The notes below the pieces were generated by a model that saw only the letters and a program-made list of their open reading frames with translations, had not been told where the DNA came from and did not search any database. Below, piece after piece: positions 41,638-59,482 of a stretch of 64,000 bases of DNA. Each line of letters starts with the position of its first letter. Position 1 is the first letter of the stretch. The DNA comes from a virus. Its lineage: Duplodnaviria > Caudoviricetes. A program made the position numbers and the translations under genes. The DNA lies in the IMG/VR virus record IMGVR_UViG_3300028591_000095, positions 102,641-166,640 of that record. The stretch is one strand, 5' to 3'.

Positions 41638-42645
41638 TTATATTACATATTCTTTGTATGATTTAATTACATCAGGGTCGATCTTATTAATTGCATTTGA
41701 TAAGTTTGTTATGTACATATTATGATACTCAAGGAGTTTCTTAATTTTAGCAGCATACTCCGCAAATATCTGTGGAATAGCACTATTAATTTCCAAGAGT
41801 TTCTGAATGTCTTCCTTGGTTGGTATTCTGCCAATCTCGACAAGATTTCCATCTATAGTAAAACCACACTTTGGTGTCACTCCGACAACCGGAGGTTTAA
41901 CATCACCGAGATTATTTTTAATATCCTTTTCAAGTCCGATACCATTGTTAATGCTTTTACATACATTACTTACATTTACTTCAAATGAAAATTCTTTAGA
42001 TTTCATAATTGATAACATCTGACCGTTGAGTGCATCTTTTGTCTCAGCATTATCAACTTCTTTACAGAATATCGAAAAATCTGATTCCTTTTTCGAGAAG
42101 TATGGAAAGAATAGTGCTGTTATACGTGTTTTCATATCAGCATCGCTTCCATAGCCAATTGGAATATCATCAGTACCTTCCAAAATCCGTGTAATTCCTT
42201 TAGCTAAACGTCTGGAAATCGTATCAGTGTTCAGATCATTAACCCAAGCTAATAAGTGGTTGTTAATACGGTTATACAACTTCTGAGGTTTTTCAACAAT
42301 ATAAACCTTAGCATTTGCATTTTTACCTTTGAAATGTCTGGGTTCAATGTATCTGAGATTCTTCACAACAGTTGGGATGAATTTGAATATAGCAGTGACG
42401 ATTTTCTTGATTATTGCAAGAACACGTTTAATGATAGATTCTTTCTTCTGAGGTGTTTCACCATCTTCATCATCCCAATCATCATAGGAGTTATCTTCAG
42501 ATTTACTGAAACCGAGATCGTTCTTAACATTATCCCAGAATCGTGTCAATCTTCCCTCCTGATAGAACGGGTCTTCTGATCTTGTTGCTTCTACTGATTC
42601 CATGAATGTTTCAAATGGAACCAGTTTGATTGAATTAGTATCCAT
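41638..42645 (-). CDS. Tagged head-protein family member
   Basis: KLVPFETFMES...FYQEG...IIKRVLAIIKKIVTAIFKFIP. Confidence 0.65.
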   Translation of the reverse strand: MDTNSIKLVPFETFMESVEATRSEDPFYQEGRLTRFWDNVKNDLGFSKSEDNSYDDWDDEDGETPQKKESIIKRVLAIIKKIVTAIFKFIPTVVKNLRYIEPRHFKGKNANAKVYIVEKPQKLYNRINNHLLAWVNDLNTDTISRRLAKGITRILEGTDDIPIGYGSDADMKTRITALFFPYFSKKESDFSIFCKEVDNAETKDALNGQMLSIMKSKEFSFEVNVSNVCKSINNGIGLEKDIKNNLGDVKPPVVGVTPKCGFTIDGNLVEIGRIPTKEDIQKLLEINSAIPQIFAEYAAKIKKLLEYHNMYITNLSNAINKIDPDVIKSYKEYVI

Positions 42646-43867
42646 ATTCTATTACTCCTTCACTTTTAAAATATGATTGTAAACCATACGAATCATTCAA
42701 TGCATCAGCGTCTGTTCTGGCTACATGGAAATTCGAACGGTGTTGACGGTTAAGCTCTCTACCGACTAATGAATGTTTGAGAATATATTCAATTGCACGA
42801 ATCTGACGATCTACAAGAAGTTGACAAGAATCTTTCAACTTTGATGTTGCATTATACAACATCTGATATGCTGTGATTATATACTCAACATTGAGTACCG
42901 GATTGAATAAATAATCGTAATTGTAACTTTTCATAGTGTCAGATGCTTTTGTGCAGTATTTCTGAATCTTAACAAAATTAACTCTGATGTCATCTACATA
43001 ATTCAGAGCAGCCTTTGTTTTCATCTTTTTCATATTGGTTTTTGTAAAGAACTTCTGATCAGTTGTATCAATTGGTGTATGACCCAACATCTGGAAGTCA
43101 ACCGCTTTAACATTCTCAACAAGCTGTTCAAGTTTGGTTATATAAGTTATTGCAAACTTTTCAACTTTATGAGCTTCATGTTGAATCTCTCCGGGTTTAA
43201 CTTTTGCAGTTTTCATCCATTCAATATATCGAGGATCCGATTGATCGAATTTACTATATACGAACTGTTGATCTTCATATGGTAAGTCTGGAGATATCTG
43301 TTTACCATCTTTATCAGTCAATTTAGAATATAAAACTTTAGAGTCTTTTATTCCCTGAACGATTGTCTCATTGAGTCTATTGAAATATCTTGTTGCATCA
43401 ACCATGTCACGACAGAAGTTTCCAGCAACGATTGTGAGTTGGTTTGAAAATTCGAATAACTTTTCAAACATTGTGACATCGAATGATTCATTCTCTGATT
43501 CATTCGTATCATCCCACGGTCTAGCAGCTTCGGAAACATTATCAGGACTCTCGCACCATCTACGAATGGCATCAAGTTTATTCTTGATACCTTTCTCGCG
43601 TAGTGCATAACTGAGCATCTTTACGATAGCAATTATAAGTCTTGGTAAGAACTTAATGATTTTAATTACAATCTTTTCATTCTTACCTTTACCGATTGCT
43701 TCATTGATAAGACGACCCTCTTGAATAACATAATCAAGTTCTTTGACATATTCAGTGTATAGATCAGTGTCAGTATATTCACAGAGTTCTTCCTCATATG
43801 ATTCCATGAATTCTTCAAATGGAACCAACTTAGTGGAAGTATCCATGTCAAAAGGTTTGAGTTTCAT
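42635..43867 (-). CDS. Tagged head-protein family member
   Basis: KLVPFEEFMES...IQEGRLINEAIGKGKNEKIVIKIIKFLPRL. Confidence 0.65.
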   Translation of the reverse strand: MKLKPFDMDTSTKLVPFEEFMESYEEELCEYTDTDLYTEYVKELDYVIQEGRLINEAIGKGKNEKIVIKIIKFLPRLIIAIVKMLSYALREKGIKNKLDAIRRWCESPDNVSEAARPWDDTNESENESFDVTMFEKLFEFSNQLTIVAGNFCRDMVDATRYFNRLNETIVQGIKDSKVLYSKLTDKDGKQISPDLPYEDQQFVYSKFDQSDPRYIEWMKTAKVKPGEIQHEAHKVEKFAITYITKLEQLVENVKAVDFQMLGHTPIDTTDQKFFTKTNMKKMKTKAALNYVDDIRVNFVKIQKYCTKASDTMKSYNYDYLFNPVLNVEYIITAYQMLYNATSKLKDSCQLLVDRQIRAIEYILKHSLVGRELNRQHRSNFHVARTDADALNDSYGLQSYFKSEGVIEYGY

Positions 43868-43877
43868 CCACTACACC

Positions 43878-44984
43878 TCATTTCATATAATCGTCACTAG
43901 ATTTACCAAGTTTACGAGGATTGAATGTCGAATCAGTTCCAGAATCTTTAAAAAACCAATTTATCTTATCTCTGATACTATTGACTCTCCTGAAATAATC
44001 AATAAGTAAATCTTTTATTATTTTAACTTGTGAATCAGACAATGGTTCATAACCAAACTGTTGTTCAGTCTCTTCTTTACCTTCAGCAAGTTTTTGTAAT
44101 TTTTCGGTAAGTGTATCGTTATTCTGATCTATACGTTTAACAATATCCTCATATCTTTTATGTAATTTTATGATCCGATAAGCATAGTCGTAAAAATTCA
44201 TTATTGATGTCGGATTATGTTCATCTTTTAGTTGAGCAGCCTTTTTGGTTAACATTGAGATTTCGGTAAACTCTTCGACACCTGATAAGAAGTGATCAAA
44301 TATTTCTTTTATATCATCTCTAGTCTTCGCTTCATGGATTGACACCTGTTCCACAATCTTTTCAACATAAAAATCAAATCGATTAGCATCTCTCTCAAGA
44401 TCTTTAAGATCTTCACGAAGTTCATTATATACATTCATATCATATTTCAACTTAATATTTTCCATCGATTTGGTTAGATCTACTCTAATCTGATTATCTG
44501 CAGATGAATATTGCTTCCGGAGTTTGTCAGCTCGTTCGAATTTACTCTTGTAGTCATCGCGCTCTAATTCAGCTTTATTAGATCTTGAAAGCAGGTCTTT
44601 CGTAATAGCTTTTTCATTTTCTAAGTCATCTTTCAATTCTGCGTTATCTTCTTTAAGCTTCACATTGGCTTTCTTCAGCTCTTCAAGAGCGTTCTCAAGT
44701 TCTTTGATTTTGATCTTATTTTTGTTTATCTTGTTGAGAAGAGCTCTTACTAATGCTTTCACAAGTCTTGGGATAAACTTGATAACTTTCACCCAAGTCT
44801 TCTCATTCTCGCCCTTACCAGTAGCAGCATCAAGTATCTTACCCTCTTGAATGATTTCGGACATTTCCATGTAAGAATCTGTCATCTCAGCAAACAGTTC
44901 AAGTTCATCAGGTTCACAACCATCATCAATAGAATTCATGAATTCTTCAAAAGGAGTAAGTTTAAATTCAATAGTTTCATTCAT
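43878..44984 (-). CDS. Tagged head-protein family member with coiled-coil body
   Basis: KLTPFEEFMNS...IQEGKILDAATGKGENEKTWVKVIKFIPRL. Confidence 0.65.
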   Translation of the reverse strand: MNETIEFKLTPFEEFMNSIDDGCEPDELELFAEMTDSYMEMSEIIQEGKILDAATGKGENEKTWVKVIKFIPRLVKALVRALLNKINKNKIKIKELENALEELKKANVKLKEDNAELKDDLENEKAITKDLLSRSNKAELERDDYKSKFERADKLRKQYSSADNQIRVDLTKSMENIKLKYDMNVYNELREDLKDLERDANRFDFYVEKIVEQVSIHEAKTRDDIKEIFDHFLSGVEEFTEISMLTKKAAQLKDEHNPTSIMNFYDYAYRIIKLHKRYEDIVKRIDQNNDTLTEKLQKLAEGKEETEQQFGYEPLSDSQVKIIKDLLIDYFRRVNSIRDKINWFFKDSGTDSTFNPRKLGKSSDDYMK

Positions 44985-45000
44985 TATATTTCATCCCCTT

Positions 45001-45930
45001 TCATTTCATATAATAGTCGATGTTCTTATCGATCTTATCATCACCTATATTCTTAAGGCTGTTTACATCATTGATCAATTTCATCTGGAAATCCTTGAGA
45101 TAATTTATATAGTCAACAATGTGACATGTGTAGTTACTGATTATCTTTTCATAGCGTTGTTTAATAAATTTTTTAGTGAAAGAATATTGTCCTTCATAAA
45201 CCACTTTACCATTGATAGTGACTTTACATTCACCAACAGCGCACCATTCATCATATTTTTTATCAGCTCTAGGATTAACTGGTTCTACACGAATATCAAA
45301 TCCTTTATCAATCTTTTTGATAAGACTGTCAATTGTGTCAGATGTATAATCCAGAATCGTATTCAACTCACCAATTGTCATTGGTTTACCTTGTTTAGAC
45401 GATGATACAAGAATGGTTTCAACTTTTCTATTTCTTTTAATTTCTGAAAGTTTATCCTTATCAGGATCTTCGAACCAGAACTCATTATTTTCAGATGCGT
45501 AACGTAATACAGCTCCAATAACAAGTTCTTCGAAATTATCAGTAATCTTTTTCAACTGTTTTCTCGTCTCATTACAGTATTCTAATTCGTCTTTATTGAC
45601 AAAAACTGTACCATACTTTGAGAGTTTAGATGGTCTTCTATAACCTATATTACGAATGAAACCAGCTATCACACCTATGATAGTTTTGATGATAAGTTTG
45701 ATGGTTTGAAGAGCGGTACGCCTTTTAGGATCATCCATTTCATCTTGAAGTTTCCTAATTTTGGGATCGAAATCGAGAGAATCAAAAACAGGTTGAAACT
45801 TTTTACTGAGTTTGTCGAACAGTTCACCTTCTTGGAAAACATCATCTATCCCAAAGTCATCCAGTTCAACATTTGCAGACTCCATCATCTGCTCAAATGG
45901 TGTGAGGTTAAATTCAATACATTCTTTCAT
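45001..45930 (-). CDS. Tagged head-protein family member (start MKECIEF)
   Basis: NLTPFEQMMES...FQEG...LQTIKLIIKTIIGVIAGFIRNI. Confidence 0.65.
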   Translation of the reverse strand: MKECIEFNLTPFEQMMESANVELDDFGIDDVFQEGELFDKLSKKFQPVFDSLDFDPKIRKLQDEMDDPKRRTALQTIKLIIKTIIGVIAGFIRNIGYRRPSKLSKYGTVFVNKDELEYCNETRKQLKKITDNFEELVIGAVLRYASENNEFWFEDPDKDKLSEIKRNRKVETILVSSSKQGKPMTIGELNTILDYTSDTIDSLIKKIDKGFDIRVEPVNPRADKKYDEWCAVGECKVTINGKVVYEGQYSFTKKFIKQRYEKIISNYTCHIVDYINYLKDFQMKLINDVNSLKNIGDDKIDKNIDYYMK

Positions 45931-45978
45931 TATAATCAATTCCTTTCATATAAGATACATGTCGAAACATTACAGATT

Positions 45979-46002
45979 TGTCCCCGGAATATTCCGGGGA
46001 CA
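45979..46002 (-). terminator. Terminator-like hairpin
   Basis: TGTCCCCGGAA-TA-TTCCGGGGACA; flank shared with 51373-51406. Confidence 0.7.
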
Positions 46003-46007
46003 TTAGA

Positions 46008-49000
46008 TCATCTGTTTCTGAAATGGGTAACGAACTCTCTGATTGGTTGAGATTTTCCAGGTTTAAGACAATTAGATTCGAATATAGGTTCACCCTTGGA
46101 GTAATACTCGATACATTGTTTTATATTAGAGCCATACTTCGGATGTCCAGTGAATTCCCATACGTAGTATTTGAATTCATTGGTTTTGTTGATGTTATCA
46201 TTAATCTTCCAATATCCATTAGCAACAATCTTGAATGCTTCTTCAATGGATTTAACTTCGTAAGTTCCAGCAACCTTTTCGAATGATGATTCAGGATATA
46301 CAAATCCACCTTTACCATCTTCAACAAGTACGAATGTATGGGTGTCATGTCCAGGAAGATCAGTTGACATGAAGTATTTCTTACACTTAATACCGTATGC
46401 ATCCAAATATCCTTCTTCGAATTCTACGAAATCATAGCATATACCGCCACCATTCTTTTCGAATTCTTCTGGAGATTGGAGTTTCCATTTGGTATCGTAA
46501 TCGTGTTCACTGCCACCGACAATTCTACCATTCTCAGGAATACCGTATTTGTATCTTTCAAGATCAGCAACCATATCCTTACATACTTCCAATGGTGAAT
46601 AATCATATGGAACATCTTTGAGTACCTTGGGTTTGACCAACCAGTGCCATTTGAAATCATAAACATTACGTTTCTTTGATTCTCCCAATGTTGTTGGTAC
46701 AGCTTTCTTACGACTCTTATCTGTTACGGAATCGATACGAATGATTCCATACTGTTTTAAACGCACGGGTTCTTCGATCCAAATCTCTTTTGTGATATTG
46801 GCATCATAGACTTTCTTTTCATCAACGAGTTGTTTGGTAGTTCTGTATTTGTATTCACTAAGAGGTTTCTCAGGAATATATACATACCAATCACGAAGTT
46901 TGTTTGCAGTCTTCCAACGACCAATGTTCACAATGATTGCATTGAGACAACCTTCGATTGATGGTGAGAAACATACACGTGGTGTTTCAACATCTTCAAA
47001 CTCAGTCTTTGATGGATCGTATTTATCCAAGTATTCAGGAACTCGCGGTTTGAATATCTGACCATCGAGATGTCCCTCTGGCGATATATGATATACGAGA
47101 TTCTTTTCGAATGGTGATACTTTGTTTTTGATATTCTGGATTACTCCTTCTTGAACTGGTTTGGATTTATCAAGTGTCATAATCCAACTAAACTTCTCAT
47201 CTTTAGATATTGTGAATCCAAGAGATCTATACAATTTAATTGCTTTCTGATTATCCTTGGCAACACGAAGAATCAATCTATCATGTCTCTTTATTTCCTG
47301 TTTGAGTATTGATGTACCGATACCTTTTCCACGATGAGCTTCGTCGATGTATATCTCTCCGATATACCACCATTCACCATCATCAATGTAGTAAGCTTCA
47401 AGTATTCCAATAACATCTTTGCCATCAAGAATCATCTTGGTGTTCTTAAGATTATCATAACAATCTTTTTCGATGAACTTGAGAACATTGGGTTTATTAC
47501 GAACTGATTGATTTATGGATTCCAGTTTCCATTTTCTGATATTCGGAATGTCAGATTCTGTTGCTGGACGGAAACGTATTCTTTTTGGTAATGCAGATTC
47601 CTGAACAGGATTGTTTTTGAGTTCTCGTTTGAGTTCTGAAGTAAAACGTTCAGTTGAAGATTTTCTGAGTTCCTTTTCAGCTTCTTCTTTAGTAATCATT
47701 CCTTCTTTTAGCATATAAGGAATATCCTTGTCAGGATCCCATCGAAGTACAGTCGATTCATCATTCCATTTATCAAAGAGATTACGATTGAACTTCTTAC
47801 CACTCAGCTGTACAATGTATGAGTTATCATAATTGATATCTGATACATAATTATGGGATTTTGTAAGTGGTTCTATCTTACCCTGTTGAGGATCAACCAC
47901 ATAATTCTTACCACCAATTCTCATAAGGATAAATTCGTGTCCACCCTTAGAATCTTTCCAATTGACATGACAATAGAATCTACAACCATCGCCAGCTTTA
48001 GTAAGCTCTGATGCAAGATCTGTGTAGTTTTTGAGTTTGATTTGACGTGAACTGAATACTATTTGATTACCAGGAATATCCAATACATCATCACGAGGAG
48101 AATATACTGGTCTAGGAAGTACATCAAGTCCACGCATTCTTGCTTCGAAACACCATGTACACAGCAAGCAATTCTGATTACCGATTGGATCTTTCTGATC
48201 CTTCTTATATTTATCATGAATCAATTTGATTGCATGTTTTACAAATGATTCCAATGCATCTTGTCGTGGTCCGAGTTTATCATATCCAAGTTTACCGGAT
48301 ACATGATAAGTGATTTCACATTTAGTCACATCATCAAATTCCACATTACCATTATCATTCACAATCAACCATTCTTTGGAAGCATCCATCCATGGATAAC
48401 GATAATAGTTGTCATTCCAATTATGTGTAAGAATCTGATGAACATAACCAGTTTGTTTTATCTCATATGGTTCGAGATCTGGATATCCTTCAATGTATAC
48501 ATGTACATCTTTCAAACATCTACCTGATTCTTTCTTATTGAATTTCAACCATTCTTCATACTGACAGTTGTATGATCCTCTAGGAATTCTATTTTGCAAT
48601 TCCATATCACGCGATATGAATATAGATGCTATTGATTTGTATGGAGTTACAAACAATGGTCGATCCAGTTTCATTTCCGGCATGTAGTTCTCTGGTGATG
48701 CAAAGTATACGTATTTGGAATCCGGTGCTGGAACTTTCATCATCTTTCCAGGTTTCACATCTTCAGTAAACGACAACGTGATTTCACGCATTTCATCCAT
48801 TGTATATGCATGATCAATTGGGATTTCTTCACCTGTGATAGCATCATACGCTTCGGTGTAACAATCATCAGGTTCGTATGAATCATTTTCATCAAACTCT
48901 GATGTTCCAGATGTTTCATCATCCAACGGTCCGACAGATTCTTTGGTAGGTTTATCATTCTTTTTATTGATCTTCCAATTTGAAGTATCAATACCATGAG

Positions 49001-49226
49001 CTTTGGCAGCTCGAAGAATTCGTTTAGCTAAAGCATCTTTATACCTGTCATCAGCATGAGGAAACATTCTCATCGCTTGTGTTATATGTGTCTTAGTATC
49101 TTCTTCATTTTTACCTTTCAATGGGAATGATCGAGTCTCAGGTATACCGAAATCGGAATCATCCATTTCGTTTCTATCATCAGCTGACAACTTTTCTTCC
49201 ATTATAAATTCATTAAGTGTCTTCAT
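46008..49226 (-). CDS. Polyvalent multi-enzyme protein: DUF6582-like, ART-like, papain-fold (Tox-PL-like), GNAT, ART-like, transglutaminase/papain-like
   Basis: DSDFGIPETRSFPL..H..QAMRMF; YFAS..LFVTP; NCLLC..EARMRG..GGHEF..VVDPQ; EIYIDEAHRGKGIG..NQKAIKLYRSLGF; VYHIS..PRVCFSPSIEGCL; GGICYDFVE..HTFV. Confidence 0.75.
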   Translation of the reverse strand: MKTLNEFIMEEKLSADDRNEMDDSDFGIPETRSFPLKGKNEEDTKTHITQAMRMFPHADDRYKDALAKRILRAAKAHGIDTSNWKINKKNDKPTKESVGPLDDETSGTSEFDENDSYEPDDCYTEAYDAITGEEIPIDHAYTMDEMREITLSFTEDVKPGKMMKVPAPDSKYVYFASPENYMPEMKLDRPLFVTPYKSIASIFISRDMELQNRIPRGSYNCQYEEWLKFNKKESGRCLKDVHVYIEGYPDLEPYEIKQTGYVHQILTHNWNDNYYRYPWMDASKEWLIVNDNGNVEFDDVTKCEITYHVSGKLGYDKLGPRQDALESFVKHAIKLIHDKYKKDQKDPIGNQNCLLCTWCFEARMRGLDVLPRPVYSPRDDVLDIPGNQIVFSSRQIKLKNYTDLASELTKAGDGCRFYCHVNWKDSKGGHEFILMRIGGKNYVVDPQQGKIEPLTKSHNYVSDINYDNSYIVQLSGKKFNRNLFDKWNDESTVLRWDPDKDIPYMLKEGMITKEEAEKELRKSSTERFTSELKRELKNNPVQESALPKRIRFRPATESDIPNIRKWKLESINQSVRNKPNVLKFIEKDCYDNLKNTKMILDGKDVIGILEAYYIDDGEWWYIGEIYIDEAHRGKGIGTSILKQEIKRHDRLILRVAKDNQKAIKLYRSLGFTISKDEKFSWIMTLDKSKPVQEGVIQNIKNKVSPFEKNLVYHISPEGHLDGQIFKPRVPEYLDKYDPSKTEFEDVETPRVCFSPSIEGCLNAIIVNIGRWKTANKLRDWYVYIPEKPLSEYKYRTTKQLVDEKKVYDANITKEIWIEEPVRLKQYGIIRIDSVTDKSRKKAVPTTLGESKKRNVYDFKWHWLVKPKVLKDVPYDYSPLEVCKDMVADLERYKYGIPENGRIVGGSEHDYDTKWKLQSPEEFEKNGGGICYDFVEFEEGYLDAYGIKCKKYFMSTDLPGHDTHTFVLVEDGKGGFVYPESSFEKVAGTYEVKSIEEAFKIVANGYWKINDNINKTNEFKYYVWEFTGHPKYGSNIKQCIEYYSKGEPIFESNCLKPGKSQPIREFVTHFRNR

Positions 49227-49228
49227 AT

Positions 49229-50110
49229 CTAGTCTCCTATCGGATCATAATATTTTTTGTCACCATAACCTTTAATATCATTTCTTAATGATTCAATAGC
49301 AGCAACATCACCGTTGTTGTCTTTAAGTATATCCACTAAACTGCCAGTTATGTAACCACAACAAAGATATGTTTCACGTAATTCATGTCTAAAACAATAC
49401 TGCATATTGTTGTATACACCCCAACCAAGGTCATAATATAAATTAAAATCTTTATAACCATCAGATGCAGCAGCTTCTCTTTTAGAATAATAGGTTTTAA
49501 TCAAATCATTAACAAATTCTTCATTGAAGGATTCCTCATAGATTTTCATAACTCGTTTAACGATATCAGTTGCAATTGCGATAGCTTTTGTTTGTGAGAT
49601 GATTTGTCCTTTTTTATTTACGGTTGTATCAGAATAAACACGACCAAACAGACGATATCCTTTTTGATGTTCAGGAAAATCAATATATGTATTCAATTCA
49701 AAAACATGTTTTTGAATTTTCTTTCCAGCAATGATATCATCACAATATCTCTGTAGTGCTGGTTTGATCTCTTTACTTATCTCATCCCATCTATCAAGAT
49801 ATTTAATAATAGAATCATATACCTCAGTATTGATATAAACACCTTTACCAGATTTTGCAATAAGTTTCTGAACGATCTTGAGTTTTGATATGATATCACC
49901 AAGCTTTTTGATTACAGCTCGTATCAATCGTGGAATGAATTTGGCTACTTTCTTCCAAGTAGCCTCATCGTTACCTTTACCAAGAGCTTCATCAAGTATC
50001 TTTCCTTCCTGAATGATTTCAGTGAATTCGTCAACACATTCAACATCGACATCAACAGAATTCATGAATTCTTCAAAAGGAGTAAGTTTAAATTCAATAC
50101 ATTCCTTCAT
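49229..50110 (-). CDS. Tagged head-protein family member (start MKECIEF)
   Basis: KLTPFEEFMNS...IQEGKILDEALGKGNDEATWKKVAKFIPRL. Confidence 0.65.
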   Translation of the reverse strand: MKECIEFKLTPFEEFMNSVDVDVECVDEFTEIIQEGKILDEALGKGNDEATWKKVAKFIPRLIRAVIKKLGDIISKLKIVQKLIAKSGKGVYINTEVYDSIIKYLDRWDEISKEIKPALQRYCDDIIAGKKIQKHVFELNTYIDFPEHQKGYRLFGRVYSDTTVNKKGQIISQTKAIAIATDIVKRVMKIYEESFNEEFVNDLIKTYYSKREAAASDGYKDFNLYYDLGWGVYNNMQYCFRHELRETYLCCGYITGSLVDILKDNNGDVAAIESLRNDIKGYGDKKYYDPIGD

Positions 50111-50125
50111 TATAATCAATTCCTT

Positions 50126-51331
50126 TCATATAAGATATTCATCGACAGCTGATTCTTGGAACATGTCTTCATCTATTATAGATTGGATTGTATCCCATGG
50201 ATCACACATCTCCTGAATAACATCCATGATATCATCAATATCGACATATGATTCTTTTATCATGTTCTGTACAAACTGTTTTCTGATCACAGCTCCTTCA
50301 TCAAGCTTTTTATAAATGTCTTCAAGAGTGATTTTCATAATACGTTTCTGAGTTTCATTGGTTACACGTGCAGCGTTTTCATAATCAAGTTTGTCAATGT
50401 CATTCAAGCATTTCTTATAAATCTCATATTGTTGTCTGGCAGCATCAAGCATTTTAGAGTTACCCTTTCCAGCTTTAACAAAATCTCCAAGAGTTTCAAC
50501 AGTAGAGTCAAGAAGATCTTTGAGGTCTTCGATATTGTCAACGTATGATGTCAATCTCGGACTACCATTGATCTGTTTTCTCAACTTATTACGAATAAGC
50601 TTTTCTTTTGAATTCAATACATTGAACATTCTCATTGCATGTTTCTGATATTTATTATGTTTAACTGAATACAAGTCAGCCCAGTTTTCTTCAGGATCCT
50701 TGTCGTGATCATCAAGATATCGATTGGTGTGATTTATAAGTTTACGAGCAGTTCTTTCAACTTTACCAGTATGACTATGGTCGTAGTCATCAGCTTTCGT
50801 GTGTAACCATTTATCGATATGACCTTCTTCATGTTTACGAAGTCCTTGAGCTATACCCGGATGACGTTTCAGCCATTCCTTATTCATATGGATTGATGGT
50901 TTGTCGTCCTTAAAAGCATCATCAACATATTTCTTTGAATCATCGTCAAGTAAGCCCAGTTGTTTAAATGTTTTTAATGTATCCTCTTTACGTCTTTCTG
51001 GTGCCATCATAAGAGCTGGTTCATCAGGTGATGCCCCTCCAAGACCCTTGGTTGTGAAGTTGATACGAACCGGTTTACCATTCTTATCAACGATATCACT
51101 GTCGATGGTTCCAGTCTTAGGATCATAGTCAGAATCTTTAAGAAACTTCTTTATACGATTTCTCTGTTTAGCAGTCATGTTTTTAAGATCTTTCTCAGTG
51201 TAGTTATCGTTGAGAAATTGATCTAACGTTCTACGAAGTTTCTTAGATGCTTCATTAGCTTCCTGGAATACAGAATCAATGTAATTGTCTACATCCGTTT
51301 TCTCAATACTAATTTCAATAAAATCTTTCAT
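50126..51331 (-). CDS. Tagged protein with zincin-like metallopeptidase motif
   Basis: HEEGH and downstream EENWAD; N-terminal FQEA; C-terminal IKES/IQEM/FQES. Confidence 0.6.
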   Translation of the reverse strand: MKDFIEISIEKTDVDNYIDSVFQEANEASKKLRRTLDQFLNDNYTEKDLKNMTAKQRNRIKKFLKDSDYDPKTGTIDSDIVDKNGKPVRINFTTKGLGGASPDEPALMMAPERRKEDTLKTFKQLGLLDDDSKKYVDDAFKDDKPSIHMNKEWLKRHPGIAQGLRKHEEGHIDKWLHTKADDYDHSHTGKVERTARKLINHTNRYLDDHDKDPEENWADLYSVKHNKYQKHAMRMFNVLNSKEKLIRNKLRKQINGSPRLTSYVDNIEDLKDLLDSTVETLGDFVKAGKGNSKMLDAARQQYEIYKKCLNDIDKLDYENAARVTNETQKRIMKITLEDIYKKLDEGAVIRKQFVQNMIKESYVDIDDIMDVIQEMCDPWDTIQSIIDEDMFQESAVDEYLI

Positions 51332-51383
51332 TATTAATCAATTCCTTTCATATTTATTATATATATAATAAAATTACAGATTT

Positions 51384-51406
51384 GTCCCCGGGATATCCCC
51401 GGGGAC
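51384..51406 (-). terminator. Terminator-like hairpin
   Basis: GTCCCCGGG-loop-CCCGGGGAC. Confidence 0.7.
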
Positions 51407-51414
51407 TTTAAAGA

Positions 51415-53142
51415 TTAAAGCATTGCATCATCAACAGCTGAATTTCGTTTGTTGAATTTCTTTACAAACTTAGCGATTCGATCGGGTTCTTTACCAGACT
51501 TTTGTTTCTTCTTAGATTTACCACTAGGCTGCGACTGTTTAGGTTTCTGTGGTTCATTTGAAGATTCACTAGGTTGAGATTTTAGTTTACCATACTTGGC
51601 TTCCAAATCAGAAAGGAGTTCTTCATCCGATTTTAGTTTACCATACTTGGCTTCCAAATCAGCTATGAGTTTCTCACGCTGTTCTGAAGATTTACTAGTA
51701 CCCATGTTTATAGGTTTATCTCCTTTAGGAAGAGTCTGACCATTCATAGCAAGCTGACGTTTAGCTTCTTTAGCTTGACGCTTTGCAACAGCTGCATTAG
51801 CAGGTGTAACGTAAGTCTTATTGAAATAATCAATAAACTGAGTTGAAGCTTTTTCAACTTGATTTGTTAAAGCAGCACCAACATTTATCAGATGATCGAT
51901 CAGTTTAAATACGTATGTTTTAACAAACTTTTCAAGTTCAGAAGGTCTCATGAAATTACCTGGGTTTTCTGGAGCTCTTCCAAGACTACGCACACGATCT
52001 GCATTTTTGTTATCAGACGCTGCATCAGCATAAGCTTGTTCGTATTGGTCTTTGAATCCAGTGTTGATCCATTTTTCTAAAGCTTTTTGTGATTTAACAA
52101 CGTCATTAGCTTTATCTAAAAGGATCTTACGATATCTGATAAGTTTCTTACCGATATATGTGACCTTAGTGCCTTTATCAGGATTATCAAACATACCATT
52201 CTTTGGTACTGAAATAGATTCAAGCTCATCGATTTGTTGATTATATTCTTCAATGATATCATCAACACGGCTGTTATTAAATATCATCTGATATAAATCA
52301 CTGTGAAGAATATCAACTTCAGAATCTATGCAGTTACTGAATATATTCATAGCTTCTCTGATACTATAAAACCAATCTGAATTAACTTTGATTGTCATCT
52401 CAGTGAGTTTCTGTCCAGGAACTTGTCTTCTAGTAGTCCAAGTACCATCAGGAGCTGTTGAATGTTTCCCTTTGAAAGCTGAAACGCCATTCTTTTTGAT
52501 GTAATCTCTGGCATCATTCGGGATATCATGACCATCGTATGCGTAACTTCTGTTTGGATCTTTCTGATTACGTATTTTTGGTATACGATATTTATGCTTA
52601 TCTCGATTAAGATTATACTTCTTACGTTCGACAGCTTCAGGAGTTCCGATATCATCGGTTATATTTCCGACTGAACTATCCCTCGAATCAATAACATCAT
52701 CATCGGTGTCGTCCTTATCCCAAATATATGTGTCATCTTTATCACCATCTTCAAACGATAATGGTTCAGTTCCAAGATTTTCAGCTTCAACTGTCGGGAT
52801 ATTACCATCAGCAATATCCTGGAGTTTGTCATCAATCTTTTTAGCCTTTTTGGATCGTCTCCAGTCACCAATGGCTCTGGCTAAAGCCATTAATAATCTT
52901 GGAATGAACTTGAGAATCTTGATGATCATGGCTTCGTCTTTACCTTTACCTGTTGCGTCATCAAGAATTCCTTTGAGGACTCCAGCTTCTTGATAGAGTT
53001 CAAGCTCCATCATATGAGCTTTGTACATCTCAAGGAATATATCAGTATAGTCGGTATAGTAATCAGAAACCGATTCACATGAAAATGAATCGGTTTCATC
53101 ATCGAGCATGACTGAATTAGTGAACTCTATGAAGTCTTTCAT
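51415..53142 (-). CDS. Tagged head-protein family member
   Basis: YQEAGVLKGILDDATGKGKDEAMIIKILKFIPRL; basic C-terminal tail. Confidence 0.65.
   Translation of the reverse strand: MKDFIEFTNSVMLDDETDSFSCESVSDYYTDYTDIFLEMYKAHMMELELYQEAGVLKGILDDATGKGKDEAMIIKILKFIPRLLMALARAIGDWRRSKKAKKIDDKLQDIADGNIPTVEAENLGTEPLSFEDGDKDDTYIWDKDDTDDDVIDSRDSSVGNITDDIGTPEAVERKKYNLNRDKHKYRIPKIRNQKDPNRSYAYDGHDIPNDARDYIKKNGVSAFKGKHSTAPDGTWTTRRQVPGQKLTEMTIKVNSDWFYSIREAMNIFSNCIDSEVDILHSDLYQMIFNNSRVDDIIEEYNQQIDELESISVPKNGMFDNPDKGTKVTYIGKKLIRYRKILLDKANDVVKSQKALEKWINTGFKDQYEQAYADAASDNKNADRVRSLGRAPENPGNFMRPSELEKFVKTYVFKLIDHLINVGAALTNQVEKASTQFIDYFNKTYVTPANAAVAKRQAKEAKRQLAMNGQTLPKGDKPINMGTSKSSEQREKLIADLEAKYGKLKSDEELLSDLEAKYGKLKSQPSESSNEPQKPKQSQPSGKSKKKQKSGKEPDRIAKFVKKFNKRNSAVDDAML
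51578..51662. repeat. 34-bp direct repeat, period 51 bp (DLEAKYGKLKS twice)
   Basis: GATTTTAGTTTACCATACTTGGCTTCCAAATCAG at 51578 and 51629. Confidence 0.9.
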
Positions 53143-53145
53143 ATA

Positions 53146-56100
53146 TTACACCATCCATTCAGTGATAGCATTAGCTGCACCAGTTCTGAGCTGCATATTT
53201 TTGCTTACACCAGCAGCATCAAGTTCCTCATCTCTCTTCTTGAGAAGCTTAAGAACTTTCTCACTCTGTTCAACAAACTCTTTGAGTCTTGCTGGAACAC
53301 GAAATGCGTCTGACATCTTCTTATTCTTTCTGAGTATTGAAGTTCCGTAAGCTCCGCCATGTACTATGTTATTAGTAATTCTTGCAAGTTCTCTGAGTTC
53401 TTTTCTCTCATTAACTGTCCAGGTTGCAGTTCCTGCATATGGACCAGTGAGATAGTTCAGATCCTTACTAACAGCCTTCAGAGCTTTCTTCAGAGCCTTC
53501 TTATTCTCAGAAGCTTCGAAGTTCTCAGACTTGATGATTTCGAAAACTCTCATCAAGTCCTTAGGGAATCTACCAAACTTCTTAAGATCGAGGAATGGTT
53601 TGATCATAGCGATACATCCACCGATGATAGCACCTACACCCATAAGTTCTACTAAAGTAAATTCCTGGTAGAACTGAATGCAGTTGTTACTTGCATTGAT
53701 AAGTGGACTGTTGTCGGGTTCGTAAGACTCATCAAAGAACTCAGCGTCGGTAAGAAGTTCCTCAGTATCAGACTCAAATACAAAATCATTTGTATTTACA
53801 AATTCACATTTGTAGTCTTCATATTCAGTTTCTTCCTGAACCATCTGATCTCTAAGGGCTTTTGCGTTGTTGAGATTGTCTGTCATTGATTCGATGTATG
53901 CATCAACATCATCGACTGTAATGTCATCAGTCTCATAAGATTCATAATTACTCATAATATCAACTCCTTCATTGTATAGATCATTCTCATCAGTCTTGTT
54001 GCGAATAAATGCTGCGAGATCAACCCATTGTTTTATGAAATCAGAAACCGCGATCATAACAGTTTCTACATCTGGATCAAAGTCAATTGAGTTTGATTCC
54101 CAATCATCATCGTTAAATTTCTTAGCCTCTTTTTCGAATGCCTCAGTTAACTTGGAAAGTTCAGCTGCAAGTTGTATCAGATGTGAAGCTGTATCAGTTT
54201 TCTCATCTGTAGATGATTCAACTTTTCCGATATATTCTTTAGCCTTAGTATTAAAATTATTGAGTTTATCAATTAATGCTGTTCCAAAGTATTGATCTTT
54301 AAACAATGCATTGTTAATTTCACCCATCAATGCTACAGCCGTGCGAACTAGCTCGATGAATTCATCATCAATAAGATATTTGCCGGAAATTTGTTGTTTT
54401 GGATCCTTCGCAATTTTCTTTTCAAGCTTACGAAGATCTCTCTTATTTTTCCACATTTTGTATTTATTTATCCACTTTTGGATTAAAGCTTTGATCTTAT
54501 TGATGATAGTCTTTATGATTCCTTGCTTTTCACCACCAGATGCTTCCATGTACATGTCATCGATATAATCATCTACATTGAATTCTTCAACGGTATCATC
54601 CTTTGGGGGTTCTGCATCTGATATAAGCCTTCTGAATTCAAATGGATCAAGAGAAAGTTGAGCATTTACAGAATTGATAATTTTCTGATTACCAACCATC
54701 AATTCTTCAATGAACTTGAATATCGTATTGGATAACTTACAAGCTTTATCCACTATATGTTCGTCATAATATGCGTCGTAGTTTATATCGACGATATCCC
54801 AGTCCATGTCATCAAGGTTTGTCATAAGAACACCGAGACTGTTGTATTCTTCAACACACCATCTACAGAACTGATATAATGATATAGGTTGATCACTGTA
54901 CTCATATTTGATATCTTTTATTGATTCAAAGCTTTTGATGATTTCATCATATATTTGATCAACGACATCAGCAGATTGATTGTGAGACATGGCTTTACCC
55001 CATGACTTAACTATGATGTCACATCGAGAAAGAACTGCCATAATTATATCATGATTCCAAGATTTCTTAGACATCTTCTTCTTAGCTTTTTCAGCTTTCT
55101 TGGTATCATGTATAATATTCTTCATCTTGTCGATATATGCAACAGTTCGTTTAGCTCTGAATGTTTTTATCATAGATTTGATTTTAGCAATCAAAGCTTG
55201 AATAGCCATTTTGATCTTACTGCCAATACCGTCTTTCTTATCATCAGCATTAGATTCCTGATAGAGATCGACCTGCATCATCTCAAGGAATGGATCAGCC
55301 ATATAGTAATCTTCGACAGAATATTCATTTGTTGGATCTTGTGGATCATAGTCATCAAGATCATCTAAATCACCAGGATCATCAAAGTCATCGATGTTAA
55401 AGTTATCGGGAGGAGTAAGATCAGGCACATCCTCTAATTCAGATGAGTTATTGACTGAATTATTAGGTTTATCAACTACCCAATCTGGATTCTGAGAATT
55501 GAAATATGTTACTGAATATCTGATGTTCTTTTGAACCATATCAGTGATCATCCATATTCTATTTAAGAATGTAAGGATTCTTTGTCCGGCATATTCACCG
55601 AACTTATCAATCACAGAGTCTTTATTGTCTTTAGTTGGCTCCAAATATTCTCCACAGAATTTCTGACCCATAGCAATCATCATATGATTAAGAAATGGAG
55701 TTACCTCTTTTGCAAGCTCATATTGATGAAGGACTGTATCTGTTTTCTTTGTAACTTTCCAGGTATTTTCATAATATTTTAAGAATCTCGCGGAAAAGTC
55801 ATCAAGTTTATCTGCATATGCGTCAACATTCTGATGATTATCATATAATCCATCAAGAAGATTATGAGCTTCCTTGATATAATTCACTGTCGTATCATCA
55901 AGAATATATTTACCAGAGATTTTCTTCTTTGAAAGCTTTTCTCTCATCTGTGGATCTTTGAGAGATTTCTCAATCTTCTCAGTATATTTCTTACCTCTCC
56001 ACATCTTGTAGCGTTGTATCAAACGTTGAACGAAAGCTCTTATCTTATTGATGATAGTCTTTATGATTCCCTGCTTTTCACCATCAGCAGTACCATTGTC

Positions 56101-56838
56101 AGACTCATAATAGATATCCAAGAAATCAAAATCGGTATCACCGAAGTATTCCATCTTATAGCGTTTTCCAAAACTACCATCAGAAGCTTTGATACTTTTC
56201 AATCTCTTCAGCTGACCTTTGTGTGCATCAGAAAGATTATCGACTATGAAGTTATCAAGATCTGTGAGATCCTTATCACCTACAGTATGACCTTTCTTGT
56301 CGATACGTTCCTTAAGTTCATCAAGTTCTTTACGAGTACGCTTTGAAGCATCAACAAGTGACTCTTTTTCTTTGAGTCTAGCAGAAGGTGTCTTCCAGTA
56401 ATCTGGAACCTGAAGACTCTTAGGAATAAATGATGGAGAATCATTAACAAGTCTCTTGTATTTATTCTTAACATTGCCTGAATCCAGTTCACGTTTGAAA
56501 TCACGAAAATCTTTCATTGTTTCAATCGCGTCAGGATCGATGAACACAGTCTTGTTTGGGTTGGTCTTGTTATTCTCATAAGCTTCTTCAACACCATCTA
56601 CAAGAGAATCAGTTTCAACATCAGCTTCTTCACGAATCATCTCGAGTGTCGACTCTATATAGAACTCAAGTTCATCAACAGTGAGATTCTCATATTCAAA
56701 TGATTCTTTAATCATATAAGCATGAAGATTAACACAATCGATGAGATCTGTTATATCATAGGATTCAGTTTCAACTGTATCGTCTTCTTCCTGTTGATGT
56801 GCTTTGAATAATTTTATCTCTTCGACAATATCATTCAT
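53146..56838 (-). CDS. Concatemeric polyprotein of tagged head-protein units
   Basis: Acidic linker + YxE + amphipathic helix, repeated: YYES..KQGIIKTIINKI; YQES..GIGSKIKMAI; YMEA..KQGIIKTIINKI; YQEF. Confidence 0.65.
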   Translation of the reverse strand: MNDIVEEIKLFKAHQQEEDDTVETESYDITDLIDCVNLHAYMIKESFEYENLTVDELEFYIESTLEMIREEADVETDSLVDGVEEAYENNKTNPNKTVFIDPDAIETMKDFRDFKRELDSGNVKNKYKRLVNDSPSFIPKSLQVPDYWKTPSARLKEKESLVDASKRTRKELDELKERIDKKGHTVGDKDLTDLDNFIVDNLSDAHKGQLKRLKSIKASDGSFGKRYKMEYFGDTDFDFLDIYYESDNGTADGEKQGIIKTIINKIRAFVQRLIQRYKMWRGKKYTEKIEKSLKDPQMREKLSKKKISGKYILDDTTVNYIKEAHNLLDGLYDNHQNVDAYADKLDDFSARFLKYYENTWKVTKKTDTVLHQYELAKEVTPFLNHMMIAMGQKFCGEYLEPTKDNKDSVIDKFGEYAGQRILTFLNRIWMITDMVQKNIRYSVTYFNSQNPDWVVDKPNNSVNNSSELEDVPDLTPPDNFNIDDFDDPGDLDDLDDYDPQDPTNEYSVEDYYMADPFLEMMQVDLYQESNADDKKDGIGSKIKMAIQALIAKIKSMIKTFRAKRTVAYIDKMKNIIHDTKKAEKAKKKMSKKSWNHDIIMAVLSRCDIIVKSWGKAMSHNQSADVVDQIYDEIIKSFESIKDIKYEYSDQPISLYQFCRWCVEEYNSLGVLMTNLDDMDWDIVDINYDAYYDEHIVDKACKLSNTIFKFIEELMVGNQKIINSVNAQLSLDPFEFRRLISDAEPPKDDTVEEFNVDDYIDDMYMEASGGEKQGIIKTIINKIKALIQKWINKYKMWKNKRDLRKLEKKIAKDPKQQISGKYLIDDEFIELVRTAVALMGEINNALFKDQYFGTALIDKLNNFNTKAKEYIGKVESSTDEKTDTASHLIQLAAELSKLTEAFEKEAKKFNDDDWESNSIDFDPDVETVMIAVSDFIKQWVDLAAFIRNKTDENDLYNEGVDIMSNYESYETDDITVDDVDAYIESMTDNLNNAKALRDQMVQEETEYEDYKCEFVNTNDFVFESDTEELLTDAEFFDESYEPDNSPLINASNNCIQFYQEFTLVELMGVGAIIGGCIAMIKPFLDLKKFGRFPKDLMRVFEIIKSENFEASENKKALKKALKAVSKDLNYLTGPYAGTATWTVNERKELRELARITNNIVHGGAYGTSILRKNKKMSDAFRVPARLKEFVEQSEKVLKLLKKRDEELDAAGVSKNMQLRTGAANAITEWMV

Positions 56839-56879
56839 TTAAATCGAACTCCTTTCATATAGAATTAAATAGAATAACA

Positions 56880-56901
56880 CGGTGGGGGACTTCCCCCACC
56901 G
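56880..56901 (-). terminator. GC-rich hairpin, probable terminator
   Basis: CGGTGGGGGA-CT-TCCCCCACCG. Confidence 0.65.
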
Positions 56902-56934
56902 GTCATTCCAGGAGGATATACTTATGCAATCAAA

Positions 56935-57198
56935 TTACATAAATCTACCAGGCTTAGGTGTAGTAGCCGGTGTAGGCTGTACATAGCCGATTGCGAGATC
57001 AGACTGTTCGATATCCATGTCGAACTGTCCACTCTTGAGACGATTGTTACCACCTGCAACGATTCCCTCAGGATCGAATGAATTGAATGCAGACTGGAAG
57101 AGATCCTTGAAATGTGATGAACCAGGATTGTATGCCTCCTGAACGGGCTCGTCGTCGAATCCGAAATCCAGATCCATTTCTTCAAACAGATTGTTCAT
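56935..57198 (-). CDS. Small tagged protein, 87 aa
   Basis: Acidic leader then PVQEA. Confidence 0.6.
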   Translation of the reverse strand: MNNLFEEMDLDFGFDDEPVQEAYNPGSSHFKDLFQSAFNSFDPEGIVAGGNNRLKSGQFDMDIEQSDLAIGYVQPTPATTPKPGRFM

Positions 57199-57321
57199 AT
57201 CGTTATTACCAGTAATGATTTATACAGTCGCTGCAGACTGTTCAAGTATGAGATTAGTATTACTGGATGACCCTCTTTCATAGTTATTAGCAGCTATTCT
57301 AATCCCATATTAGTATTAAGT

Positions 57322-58686: not shown

Positions 58687-58779
58687 ACCAAGATAACCTG
58701 ACAGACTTTATGTGTCGTATCACATTGAGAATGAACTAACATGTCAGGTCCTGCCTTCCTACTTATTTACGAAATAACT

Positions 58780-59172
58780 TTAGTTCATCCTTGACATTAG
58801 TACGCTCATGACAGATTGTAGCTTTTCAATATTGAAGTATCTGATATACTCAAAATCGAAAACATTAATCGATGGGCATCGATTCAATATCATCAAGGGT
58901 CTCCACATGTTCGTCATACCATAACGGTCGTACGCACATTTCTTTGGATTCCTAACGTACTTTTTATCAAACTTCTCCACCGTATACATATCAGGTATTC
59001 CCTCAATGATACGATAGAATTGTAGCGGTAACATGTCGATTACAGCATACCATGATTGTTCTGAATCAGGGTTTGTGAGTTTCACCGATGTTGTCACATT
59101 CTGAAATGTAAACAGATCTGAACGTTCCAACTTGATTAATTCTCTGACCAAAGTTTTCTCTTCAGAAGTCAT
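58780..59172 (-). CDS. Baseplate wedge protein, T4 gp53-like (LysM-like)
   Basis: YVRNPKKCAYDRYGMTNMWRPLMILN matches the RPDxxSxxxYGxxxxWWxIxxxN pattern. Confidence 0.6.
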   Translation of the reverse strand: MTSEEKTLVRELIKLERSDLFTFQNVTTSVKLTNPDSEQSWYAVIDMLPLQFYRIIEGIPDMYTVEKFDKKYVRNPKKCAYDRYGMTNMWRPLMILNRCPSINVFDFEYIRYFNIEKLQSVMSVLMSRMN

Positions 59173-59186
59173 TAGGCATCACCCAT

Positions 59187-59471: not shown

Positions 59472-59482
59472 AACCGCTGATA

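Follow-up and report, generated by a model that had tools for sequence, protein, structure and literature searches.

Modules of a multi-enzyme protein in an uncultivated phiKZ-like jumbo phage are joined by a motif shared with its capsid protein and prohead protease

The window analyzed here is a 64,000-nucleotide stretch of DNA (positions 102,641 to 166,640 of IMG/VR record IMGVR_UViG_3300028591_000095) from an uncultivated phiKZ-like jumbo phage. The genome encodes split multisubunit RNA polymerase beta subunits, and the 166.6-kb record is rated 62% complete. On the minus strand, closely packed within a co-directional run of leader-tagged genes, lies the gene for a 1072-aa protein (P0001) that has at least two unrelated catalytic domains in one chain: a GNAT and a Gln_amidase domain recognized by Pfam, along with a protease fold and two ADP-ribosyltransferase (ART)-like folds recognized by structure. 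A preliminary description of this ORF had divided it into six domain-sized blocks, and our profile and structure searches recovered all six at the positions it gave. The features are as follows, an arrow marking the position after the last residue of a joint motif.

46008..49226, minus strand: P0001 gene, probable polyvalent protein, 1072 aa, uninterrupted by stops
49194..49226, minus strand: candidate capsid-targeting leader, MKTLNEFIMEE, aa 1-11, with likeness to the T4 CTS
48939..49193, minus strand: module A, DUF6582 family, aa 12-96, ending KPTKE↓S (E96)
48762..48938, minus strand: two acidic spacer peptides, aa 97-125 (CYTE↓A end) and aa 126-155 (SFTE↓D end)
48249..48761, minus strand: module B, ART-like fold with weak structural scores, aa 156-326, ending DALE↓S (E326)
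47598..48248, minus strand: module C, papain-fold glutamine-deamidase family (PF15644), aa 327-543, with a helical tail carrying NNPVQE↓S (E543)
47148..47597, minus strand: module D, RimI-like GNAT acetyltransferase cassette, aa 544-693, ending KPVQE↓G (E693)
46599..47147, minus strand: module E, second ART-like fold, aa 694-876
46011..46598, minus strand: module F, transglutaminase-like cysteine protease fold, aa 877-1072
41638..62384, minus strand: co-directional gene block that includes the target gene, with 11 genes that have motif-ended leaders
G000 64683-65594, minus strand: prohead protease

The gene context of P0001 and its co-directional block were conserved in a 237-kb relative. We queried 50,697 deposited phage genomes with the gene (megablast) and with the capsid protein (tblastn), and neither search returned a cultured relative. 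Ten neighbours scanned with PHROG and Pfam yielded almost no usable annotation, and their weak matches to Syntaxin, TRI5, CorA, and Ferritin were judged to be noise of coiled or acidic sequence. The prohead protease matched PHROG 3014/207 ('head maturation protease', 3.1e-11) and scored 23.0 bits against Pfam Peptidase_S80, slightly below the cutoff of 23.4.

Module D matched GNAT (PF00583) at 1.1e-13 and 51.9 bits (cutoff 20.7), and the residues of its acetyl-CoA motif, R632-x-x-G635-x-G637, were kept in 55-58 of 61 homologues. Module C scored 30.2 bits against Gln_amidase (PF15644; cutoff 24.1) and its triad was kept, with C353 present in 66 of 67 homologues and both H430 and D445 in all 67; it is a member of the papain-fold toxin 1/glutamine-deamidase family, with putative deamidase activity. 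The structure matches of module F comprised CPR-C4 (Z 12.1; 156 aligned residues, rmsd 3.7), vasohibin (Z 10.1), and LapG (Z 8.7). Its catalytic C930 and H963 were invariant (64/64 homologues), and a close relative, P0154, scored 21.1 against PF04473 (cutoff 20.5).

Module A of P0001 itself scored 18-22.6 bits against DUF6582 (PF20223), below the Pfam cutoff of 27.3, and 12 of the 17 segments homologous to it had a DUF6582 match (best 4e-10). The DUF6582 module held an N-terminal position in most homologues. Ahead of it we noted a feature absent from the preliminary description, a possible 11-residue leader with an IME↓E end. Its first residues, MKTLNEFIME, are identical to the T4 CTS, MKTYQEFIAE, at 7 of 10 positions, a likeness over only 10 residues that was spotted post hoc, and the I-M-E end aligns with the column of IQE↓A ahead of internal copies of module A. 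Residues 1-11 possibly represent a capsid-targeting leader.

The domain assignments of the preliminary description agreed with our searches, although both ART-like calls were made at weak structural scores (Z <=5.8). For module B, of which the AF2 model had a pLDDT of 91, ADP-ribosyltransferase-superfamily chains made up the majority of the 50 best VIA-align rows. The best Foldseek match against PDB had an E of only 0.31, and, because that list was mostly Ig-like noise, the ART call was drawn from VIA-align and the Atlas matches only (ART-PolyVal and Arr-ms, TM 0.39-0.53). The beta-1 motif of this module, VYFAS, has Phe in place of the His of H-Y-E ARTs, and model confidence was low in the tail around E326. 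In the region of the model that covers module E, ARTs were the sole matches (Z 4.8-5.3). Here, H713 (82/84 homologues), E814 (84/84), and E819 (81/84) were kept, E744, R750, and D808 were likewise retained (81-84 of 84), and the sequence matched PHROG 10766, of unknown function. No Pfam ART family, including ART-PolyVal, matched P0001 at E up to 1, and none matched 48 module-E homologues at E up to 0.1. Additionally, neither structure model had a Foldseek match in PDB at E up to 0.001, and the profile of modules E and F returned one chance-level match (E 0.37) among PDB sequences. The nearest named clusters in an ESM Atlas feature search were Arr-ms and Tox-ART-HYD1 (0.82), a value under the tool's meaningful level, so that these are leads only. 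The likeness once seen between the YFAS and YHIS stretches of the two ART-like blocks dissolved on comparison (BLASTP E 0.45, hhalign probability 0.1), ruling out modules B and E as paralogues; they would constitute two families of phage domains, both putatively ART-like in fold and matching no Pfam family here.

Five Glu motifs had been reported at the junctions of these modules, and codon coordinates confirmed each of them (E codons: TKE↓S, 48939-48941; FTE↓D, 48762-48764; ALE↓S, 48249-48251; VQE↓S, 47598-47600; VQE↓G, 47148-47150). VQE↓S (E543) and VQE↓G (E693) flank the GNAT exactly, and the presence of two [IVFY]QE[GAS] sites in P0001 had a shuffling probability of P = 0.002. The looser pattern x-x-E-[GASD] occurs 26 times in P0001, and TKE↓S, FTE↓D, and ALE↓S are therefore meaningless alone. 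Support for TKE↓S and FTE↓D came from relatives only, in which both are swap points; in the former, P3 is Thr, against Val, Ile, or Tyr in relatives, and the E96 column there reads PVKE↓S or NVQE↓S. ALE↓S did not stand as a conserved joint, since most relatives fuse B to C without Glu at that place: the E326 column reads PhiQE↓[GSA] in non-fused homologues and mostly lacks Glu in relatives with B fused to C. The homologue alignment bore out the earlier statement that blocks E and F, the last two, lack a separating motif. A candidate E-F joint at TLGE↓S (E849) was ruled out, as homologues read ...PTSKGQ↓KDTRNYFT, without Glu. The likely products are fewer than six separate enzymes. Module boundaries coincided with motifs at E96, E155, E543, and E693. 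Separately, we observed CYTE↓A at E125, which the preliminary description lacked; PDDCY.E was kept among homologues.

The genome has 26 sites of the form [IVFY]-Q-E↓[GAS], whereas 500 shuffles averaged 3.9 and never exceeded 11. Thirteen proteins had it inside their first 70 aa (0.66 expected), and 11 of the 13 were in the block around the target, where the N-terminal leaders of 21-61 aa end in [IVFY]QE↓[GA] and several begin MK..IEF, resembling the target. This sharing with the neighbours' leaders had been pointed out before, and it extends to the major capsid protein and the prohead protease. Specifically, the capsid protein reads NNFIQE↓SYN in its propeptide region (aa 116-119), with the [IV]QE↓SYN site kept in 115 of 120 homologues (57-93% identity), and the N-terminus of the protease reads CFVQE↓A (aa 32-35).

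The P0001 family comprised 1,411 representatives, which range from 188 to 2368 aa and have their modules shuffled. Among 151 members there were 213 motif sites, whereas the reversed motif had 28 and PhiQD[GAS] had 25, and the family logo was K-P-[VI]-Q-E↓[SGA]. Within 150 diverse homologues, aligned modules account for 36% of residues, yet only 2 of 204 motif sites lay deeper than 12 residues within one. The motif, with its weaker forms Phi-[KT]-E↓[SAD], is placed at the joints between modules and hardly ever within them. Because the motif codons differ between sites (CAA/CAG, GAA/GAG), the peptide is what is conserved, and a DNA recombination signal was ruled out as the main explanation of the motif.

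This motif is the exact point at which relatives have acquired, dropped, or traded cassettes. Domain swapping at the motifs had been put forward as something to look for in homologues, and in close relatives we found cassettes lost, replaced, or stacked precisely there. In ~30 of these the GNAT is missing and the sequence reads ...NNPVQE↓GVIQNIKN, while P0157 has another, 272-aa cassette at the GNAT position and P0156 has the GNAT and the 272-aa cassette in tandem, both with a PhiQE end. Closer to the N-terminus, P0152 and P0153 have a 250-aa insert exactly between CYTE↓ and YYTE↓, and in P0154 and P0164 an HExxH module (a ~320-aa cassette) is inserted at the E96 column, between PVKE↓ and NVQE↓SVGP. 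Modules E and F together, or B, also occur as standalone genes with short motif-ended leaders, for example MFEEFNHFFQE↓S.

Because its modules are joined by the phage's own capsid-maturation site motif, it is likely that P0001 enters the head, is cut there into separate enzymes, and is injected. We favour, with fair confidence, the reading that it is a polyvalent head-cargo protein with enzymes arranged like beads on a string, which the head protease would cut before ejection. The N-terminal part would target the protein to the prohead core, and an S80/gp21-type prohead protease would cut at E96, E125, E155, E543, and E693 during head maturation, with E11 and E326 as further possible cuts. Such processing would yield an ~11-kDa A module, a pair of small acidic peptides, B-C still fused (or B and C apart), the GNAT, and E-F. 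All of them would remain in the head, be ejected along with the DNA, and act on host proteins in the manner of T4 Alt.

Delivery and action of P0001 as an intact chain, in which the motif is a recombination-tolerant flexible joint and the protease removes at most the N-terminal leader, appears unlikely. As precedent, the virion RNA polymerase of N4 is transferred unprocessed, as are several polyvalent proteins of plasmids (PMC5512222), and the mapped cleavages of SPN3US, the protease's own excepted, are removals of N-terminal propeptides (PMC10052503); moreover, recombination at a shared joint would likewise give cassette indels at the motif. However, the joint peptide is conserved though its codons vary, its strict Gln-Glu-small pattern exceeds the needs of flexibility, and a linker role makes no sense for the identical motif in the capsid protein, the protease, and the leaders of unrelated neighbours. 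Very unlikely, in our judgment, is cutting of the chain by its own cysteine peptidases, module C or F, in place of the prohead protease. The motif is carried by 23 of 150 representative homologues that have neither module, as well as by the capsid protein, the protease, and neighbours without such a peptidase, and Glu at P1 is a known hallmark of gp21/S80-type prohead proteases; these points weigh against the presence of two papain/transglutaminase-like modules with intact Cys-His residues and the proposal by Iyer et al. 2017 (PMC5512222) that embedded peptidases release domains. It is scarcely probable that P0001 is a late, non-virion, cytoplasmic multi-enzyme protein that owes its motif likeness to shared ancestry of linker segments, a reading for which one may cite that packaging is itself deduced and that Pfam gave no match to MuF, portal, MPTase, or another known head-anchoring domain in P0001 at E up to 1, but against which the gene sits among 11 genes with motif-ended N-terminal leaders in a conserved co-directional block (237-kb relative), the N-terminus resembles the T4 CTS and the neighbours' MK..IEF starts, and the modules also form standalone genes with short motif-terminated leaders.

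The preferred reading, that of head-loaded cargo freed by the capsid maturation protease, can be set against head-protein processing in T4, phiKZ, 201phi2-1, and SPN3US, with which the likeness lies in the Glu-P1 motif and in a protease gene near the capsid gene. T4 gp21, phiKZ gp175, and SPN3US gp245 cleave after Glu in X-x-E motifs, and in T4 both Alt and the internal proteins (IPI-III) are targeted by a CTS, undergo trimming, and leave by ejection (PMC9026906, PMC10052503, PMC5694885, PMC8442874). The motifs are L/I-x-E in T4, S/A-x-E in phiKZ, and A-x-E in SPN3US, and proteases of the gp21/S80 type cut the capsid protein, themselves, and many internal or ejection proteins, with propeptides that have multiple sites. 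In T4, processing is blocked when P1 is Asp. Compared with the phiKZ and SPN3US sites, the putative cleavage motif here has V, I, F, or Y at P3 and a fixed Gln at P2. Unlike substrates in T4, phiKZ, and SPN3US, P0001 has motif sites deep between folded modules (E543, E693) and not just in N-terminal propeptides; since the SPN3US cleavages, the protease's own excepted, remove N-terminal propeptides, the searched literature offers no direct precedent for freeing several folded enzymes from a single chain. T4 Alt is an ART that is head-packaged, protease-trimmed, ejected, and host-modifying, the course predicted here for P0001, but it is one enzyme trimmed at both ends, whereas P0001 has five enzyme-like modules in a chain. 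The T4 CTS ends in I-x-E↓, as does the start of P0001, and it is from this likeness that a CTS role is proposed there.

Polyvalent proteins (PMC5512222) likewise unite several unrelated enzymatic effectors (ART, GNAT, peptidases) in a single chain encoded by a phage, with GNAT adjoining ART among the architectures described, and they too are encoded beside virion or late genes, are extremely mosaic, and are predicted to be packaged and injected. P0001 lacks the MuF, portal, or MPTase anchors that are typical of many polyvalent proteins and not obligatory. Release through embedded peptidase domains (MPTase and others) was proposed for polyvalent proteins, whereas the joints of P0001 carry a head-maturation motif; that account (PMC5512222), as far as we found, mentions neither a common motif between domains nor processing by the prohead protease, and the searched literature did not link polyvalent proteins to the Glu-cutting prohead proteases of giant phages. 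We infer that P0001 is a variant of the polyvalent phage proteins that is processed in trans by the head protease. Both components were known already, and their proposed combination would be the new part. If confirmed, cleavage would explain how one gene delivers several independent enzymes at infection, would give a simple sequence rule that predicts mature injected proteins in uncultivated jumbo phages, and would provide a natural template for packing large capsids with foreign proteins.

Whether a general cargo grammar operates in a large clade of uncultivated jumbo phages appears evenly balanced. Under such a grammar, a short CTS-like leader or DUF6582 module would load enzyme cassettes, in any number, that each end in [VI]-Q-E↓small, and the capsid maturation protease would free the injected enzymes. 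Effector swaps would then be insertions or deletions of motif-to-motif cassettes, and tailed phages would possess a trans-processed viral polyprotein system that serves as a plug-in protein-delivery platform. Finally, at the C-terminus of the chain, the module F tail, SQPIRE-F, aligned with SQPIQE↓S of longer relatives, and P0163 extends beyond the target's C-terminus at SQPIQE↓S.

The open reading frame at 46008-49226 (minus strand) is real, and its 1072-aa product, hereafter the target, starts 2 nt past the stop of the upstream gene within a long co-directional block. The record (166.6 kb, rated 62% complete, the window being its right-hand 64 kb) comes from a phiKZ-like jumbo phage that encodes split multisubunit RNA polymerase beta subunits, a family-B DNA polymerase, a UvsX-like recombinase, SbcD and an NAD ligase. 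Neither the target gene nor the capsid protein had a match among deposited phage genomes, and the lineage is therefore uncultivated. In a syntenic 237.6-kb relative (contig L022), the DNA ligase (15724-18900) has 1058 aa and a weak HNH_3 match, suggesting an HNH or intein-like insertion; the ligase of the window (37201-39162) has 653 aa.

All six domain assignments in the preliminary description were recovered, both ART calls reading as an ART-like fold with weak support (target residues):

Module A, aa 12-96: DUF6582; the target is below cutoff, while 12 of 17 homologous segments match (best 4e-10).
Module B, aa 156-326: ART-like fold, weak; AF2 pLDDT 91.1.
Module C, aa 327-543: papain-fold glutamine-deamidase family; Gln_amidase 30.2 bits, cutoff 24.1.
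Module D, aa 544-693: GNAT; 1.1e-13, R-x-x-G-x-G intact.
Module E, aa 694-876: ART-like fold; E+F model pLDDT 90.9.
Module F, aa 877-1072: transglutaminase-like Cys protease; CPR-C4 Z 12.1, vasohibin Z 10.1, LapG Z 8.7.

Among the 50 best VIA rows for module B, ART-superfamily chains were in the majority (Tpt1/KptA, HopF, TreX, Arr, pertussis S1, diphtheria toxin and PARPs; best Z 5.8), Atlas returned ART-PolyVal and Arr-ms at TM 0.39-0.53, and the Foldseek search of the B model against the PDB was empty. Because VYFAS stands where H-Y-E-type ARTs carry His, B may be a divergent or inactive ART. ARTs were the sole matches to the E part of the E+F model (PltA, Arr, pertussis S1, TreX, Scabin and CARDS; Z 4.8-5.3); module E had no Pfam family, and its PHROG, 10766, is of unknown function. 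Modules B and E were not detectably related, and their kinship was rejected. C353, H430 and D445 of module C were conserved in 66-67 of 67 homologues, C930 and H963 of module F were invariant in homologues, and PF04473 scored above cutoff in a close relative.

Close relatives resolved the junctions to a single residue and bore out the suggestion that homologues swap domains at the motifs, with cassettes lost, replaced or placed in tandem (a slash after Glu marks the proposed prohead-protease cut):

Target: ...ELKNNPVQE/SALPK[GNAT]DKSKPVQE/GVIQNIKN...
About 30 relatives, flanks 76-91% identical: ...ELKNNPVQE/GVIQNIKN..., GNAT missing.
P0157: a different 272-aa cassette, ending ...TKMFQE/.
P0156: GNAT and the 272-aa cassette of P0157 in tandem.
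P0152, P0153: a 250-aa insert between CYTE/ and YYTE/, the latter aligned to SFTE/D of the target.
P0154, P0164: an HExxH module of ~320 aa between PVKE/ and NNVQE/SVGP, the latter aligned to PTKE/SVGP of the target.
P0163: extends beyond the target C-terminus at SQPIQE/S; the target reads SQPIRE-F, then stops.

The proposed joints VQE/S (E543) and VQE/G (E693) bracket the GNAT exactly. The insert positions show that TKE/S and FTE/D, also proposed earlier, are genuine swap points, and that CYTE/A (E125), previously overlooked, is a joint. Motif codons varied among sites (CAA/CAG, GAA/GAG), so selection acts on the peptide rather than on a DNA signal. The last 14 residues of the target, SQPIREFVTHFRNR (46011-46055, minus strand), align with SQPIQE/SMFNG... 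of P0163, which is longer (1494 aa) and carries further modules; the target C-terminus looks like a decayed joint left by loss of downstream cassettes.

Matches to the looser x-x-E-[GASD] number 26 in the target; only comparison among relatives tells real joints from chance. Two sites of the stricter motif lie in the target (P = 0.002, shuffling). An exhaustive HMMER search (E <= 0.001) gathered a family of 1,411 representatives of 188-2368 aa with modules in many orders; in the best 150 of these plus the query, the motif (logo K-P-[VI]-Q-E/[SGA]-[AVF]) occurred 213 times, whereas PhiQD[GAS] gave 25 matches and the motif in reverse 28. Just 2 of 204 sites in 150 representative homologues lay more than 12 residues deep in an aligned module, where 36% of residues lie. 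Module E nearly always starts directly after PhiQE, independent of upstream content, and, as described earlier, no joint separates it from F. ALE/S (E326), by contrast, did not hold as a conserved joint: the B model ends in a tail of low confidence that includes E326, and unfused B modules have their terminal PhiQE/ at this column, but B-C-fused relatives read ...GPSKGGIL/EY..., without Glu. B-C is probably a single product in most phages; in this phage it may be one product or two. A-x-E is the SPN3US motif. In P0066 (428 aa) and related representatives, a CxxC...CxxC zinc-ribbon-like segment (...CDSCGKTYG..PFQE/G) directly precedes the motif opening module E, and recurs as a small module in several homologues.

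Across the 132 predicted proteins of the genome, [IVFY]-Q-E-[GAS] occurred 26 times (shuffle mean 3.9, maximum 11 in 500 shuffles), and 13 proteins carried it within the first 70 residues versus 0.66 expected. Among these was the head maturation protease (CFVQE/A, aa 32-35; PHROG 3014 at 3e-11; Pfam Peptidase_S80 23.0 bits, cutoff 23.4). The major capsid protein reads NNFIQE/SYN (aa 116-119), with [IV]QE/SYN kept in 115 of 120 homologues (57-93% identity), as would be expected for a propeptide cleavage site. The E-motifs reported at the ends of neighbouring leaders were confirmed in 11 genes around the target, whose acidic leaders, 21-61 aa long, end in IIQE/G, VFQE/G, FYQE/G, LYQE/A, PVQE/A, IYQE/G or CIQE/A. 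Prohead proteases cut after Glu (T4 L/I-x-E, phiKZ S/A-x-E, SPN3US A-x-E), and their substrates in these phages include the capsid protein, the protease itself and a large number of internal or ejection proteins (PMC9026906, PMC10052503, PMC5694885). Judged from sequence, [IVFY]-Q-E-[GAS] is the probable head-maturation signature of this phage.

The target N-terminus, MKTLNEFIME, is identical at 7 of 10 positions to the T4 capsid targeting sequence (CTS), MKTYQEFIAE (PMC8442874); both end in I-x-E, and no other protein of the 132 matched the T4 CTS as well. Neighbours begin with MKECIEF, MKDFIEF or MNETIEF, IQE/A precedes internal module A copies of other phages at the aligned column, and standalone module genes have short leaders (e.g. 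MFEEFNHFFQE/S). MKTLNEFIME fits a CTS-like loading signal, a ten-residue, post-hoc likeness. Outside the window, a 192-aa ORF beside the major capsid gene (G000 61386-61964, minus strand) has a CTS-like start, MKDLFTFVMEAE, and no PHROG match; it is a possible scaffold or core protein.

We consider it likely that the target is loaded in the prohead core, cut by the prohead protease and delivered with the DNA as several products. Loading would proceed via the N-terminal part, and cleavage would fall at E96, E125, E155, E543 and E693, with E11 and E326 as further possible sites. Module A, small acidic peptides, B-C, GNAT and E-F would then enter with the DNA to modify host proteins by ADP-ribosylation, deamidation, acetylation and proteolysis; precedents exist in T4 Alt and the phiKMV Rac GNAT. 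That the chain stays uncut and merely has a conserved joint is unlikely; N4 vRNAP, which enters the head without processing, speaks for it. That module C or F processes the chain itself is highly improbable, since 23 of 150 representative homologues lack both and still carry the motif, which the capsid protein and the protease also contain. That the target is a cytoplasmic protein is very unlikely.

The target is a polyvalent protein as defined by Iyer et al. 2017, among whose listed architectures GNAT stands beside ART (PMC5512222). For such proteins, release of domains by embedded peptidases was proposed, with RNA-virus polyproteins as analogy (PMC5512222), whereas the joints of the target carry the putative prohead-protease motif. 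The mapped SPN3US cleavages, the protease's own excepted, all remove N-terminal propeptides (PMC10052503). The literature searched contained no link of polyvalent-protein joints to a prohead-protease motif and no account of cassette exchange at such joints; polyvalent proteins are therefore a known kind, and a putative head-protease motif at the joints, with cassette exchange there, appears to be new.

Further proteins of the window carry the motif or a leader:

29213-31792, plus strand: 859-aa ORF without a PHROG family, with five PhiQE[GAS] (starting at aa 92, 107, 145, 333 and 562), the most in the genome, on the opposite strand and distant from the leader-tagged block; it could be a further head protein that is cut several times.
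53146-56838, minus strand: 1230-aa neighbour starting MNDIVEE, with internal LYQE/S (aa 526-529); a possible second cargo protein of the bead-on-a-string type.
5294-9580, minus strand: 1428-aa RNA polymerase beta-type subunit starting MNIYQE/AV (motif at residues 4-7); if this is the virion RNA polymerase, it could lose a six-residue peptide from its N-terminus.
59483-60433 and 60433-61419, minus strand: adjacent paralogues, similar in body, whose 60-aa leaders (...VSVGDIYVEQALAQLNVAYSLVASYAKDVAYVEYMAEMNGVDIYQE/GFF) are almost identical; both are candidate abundant inner-head proteins.
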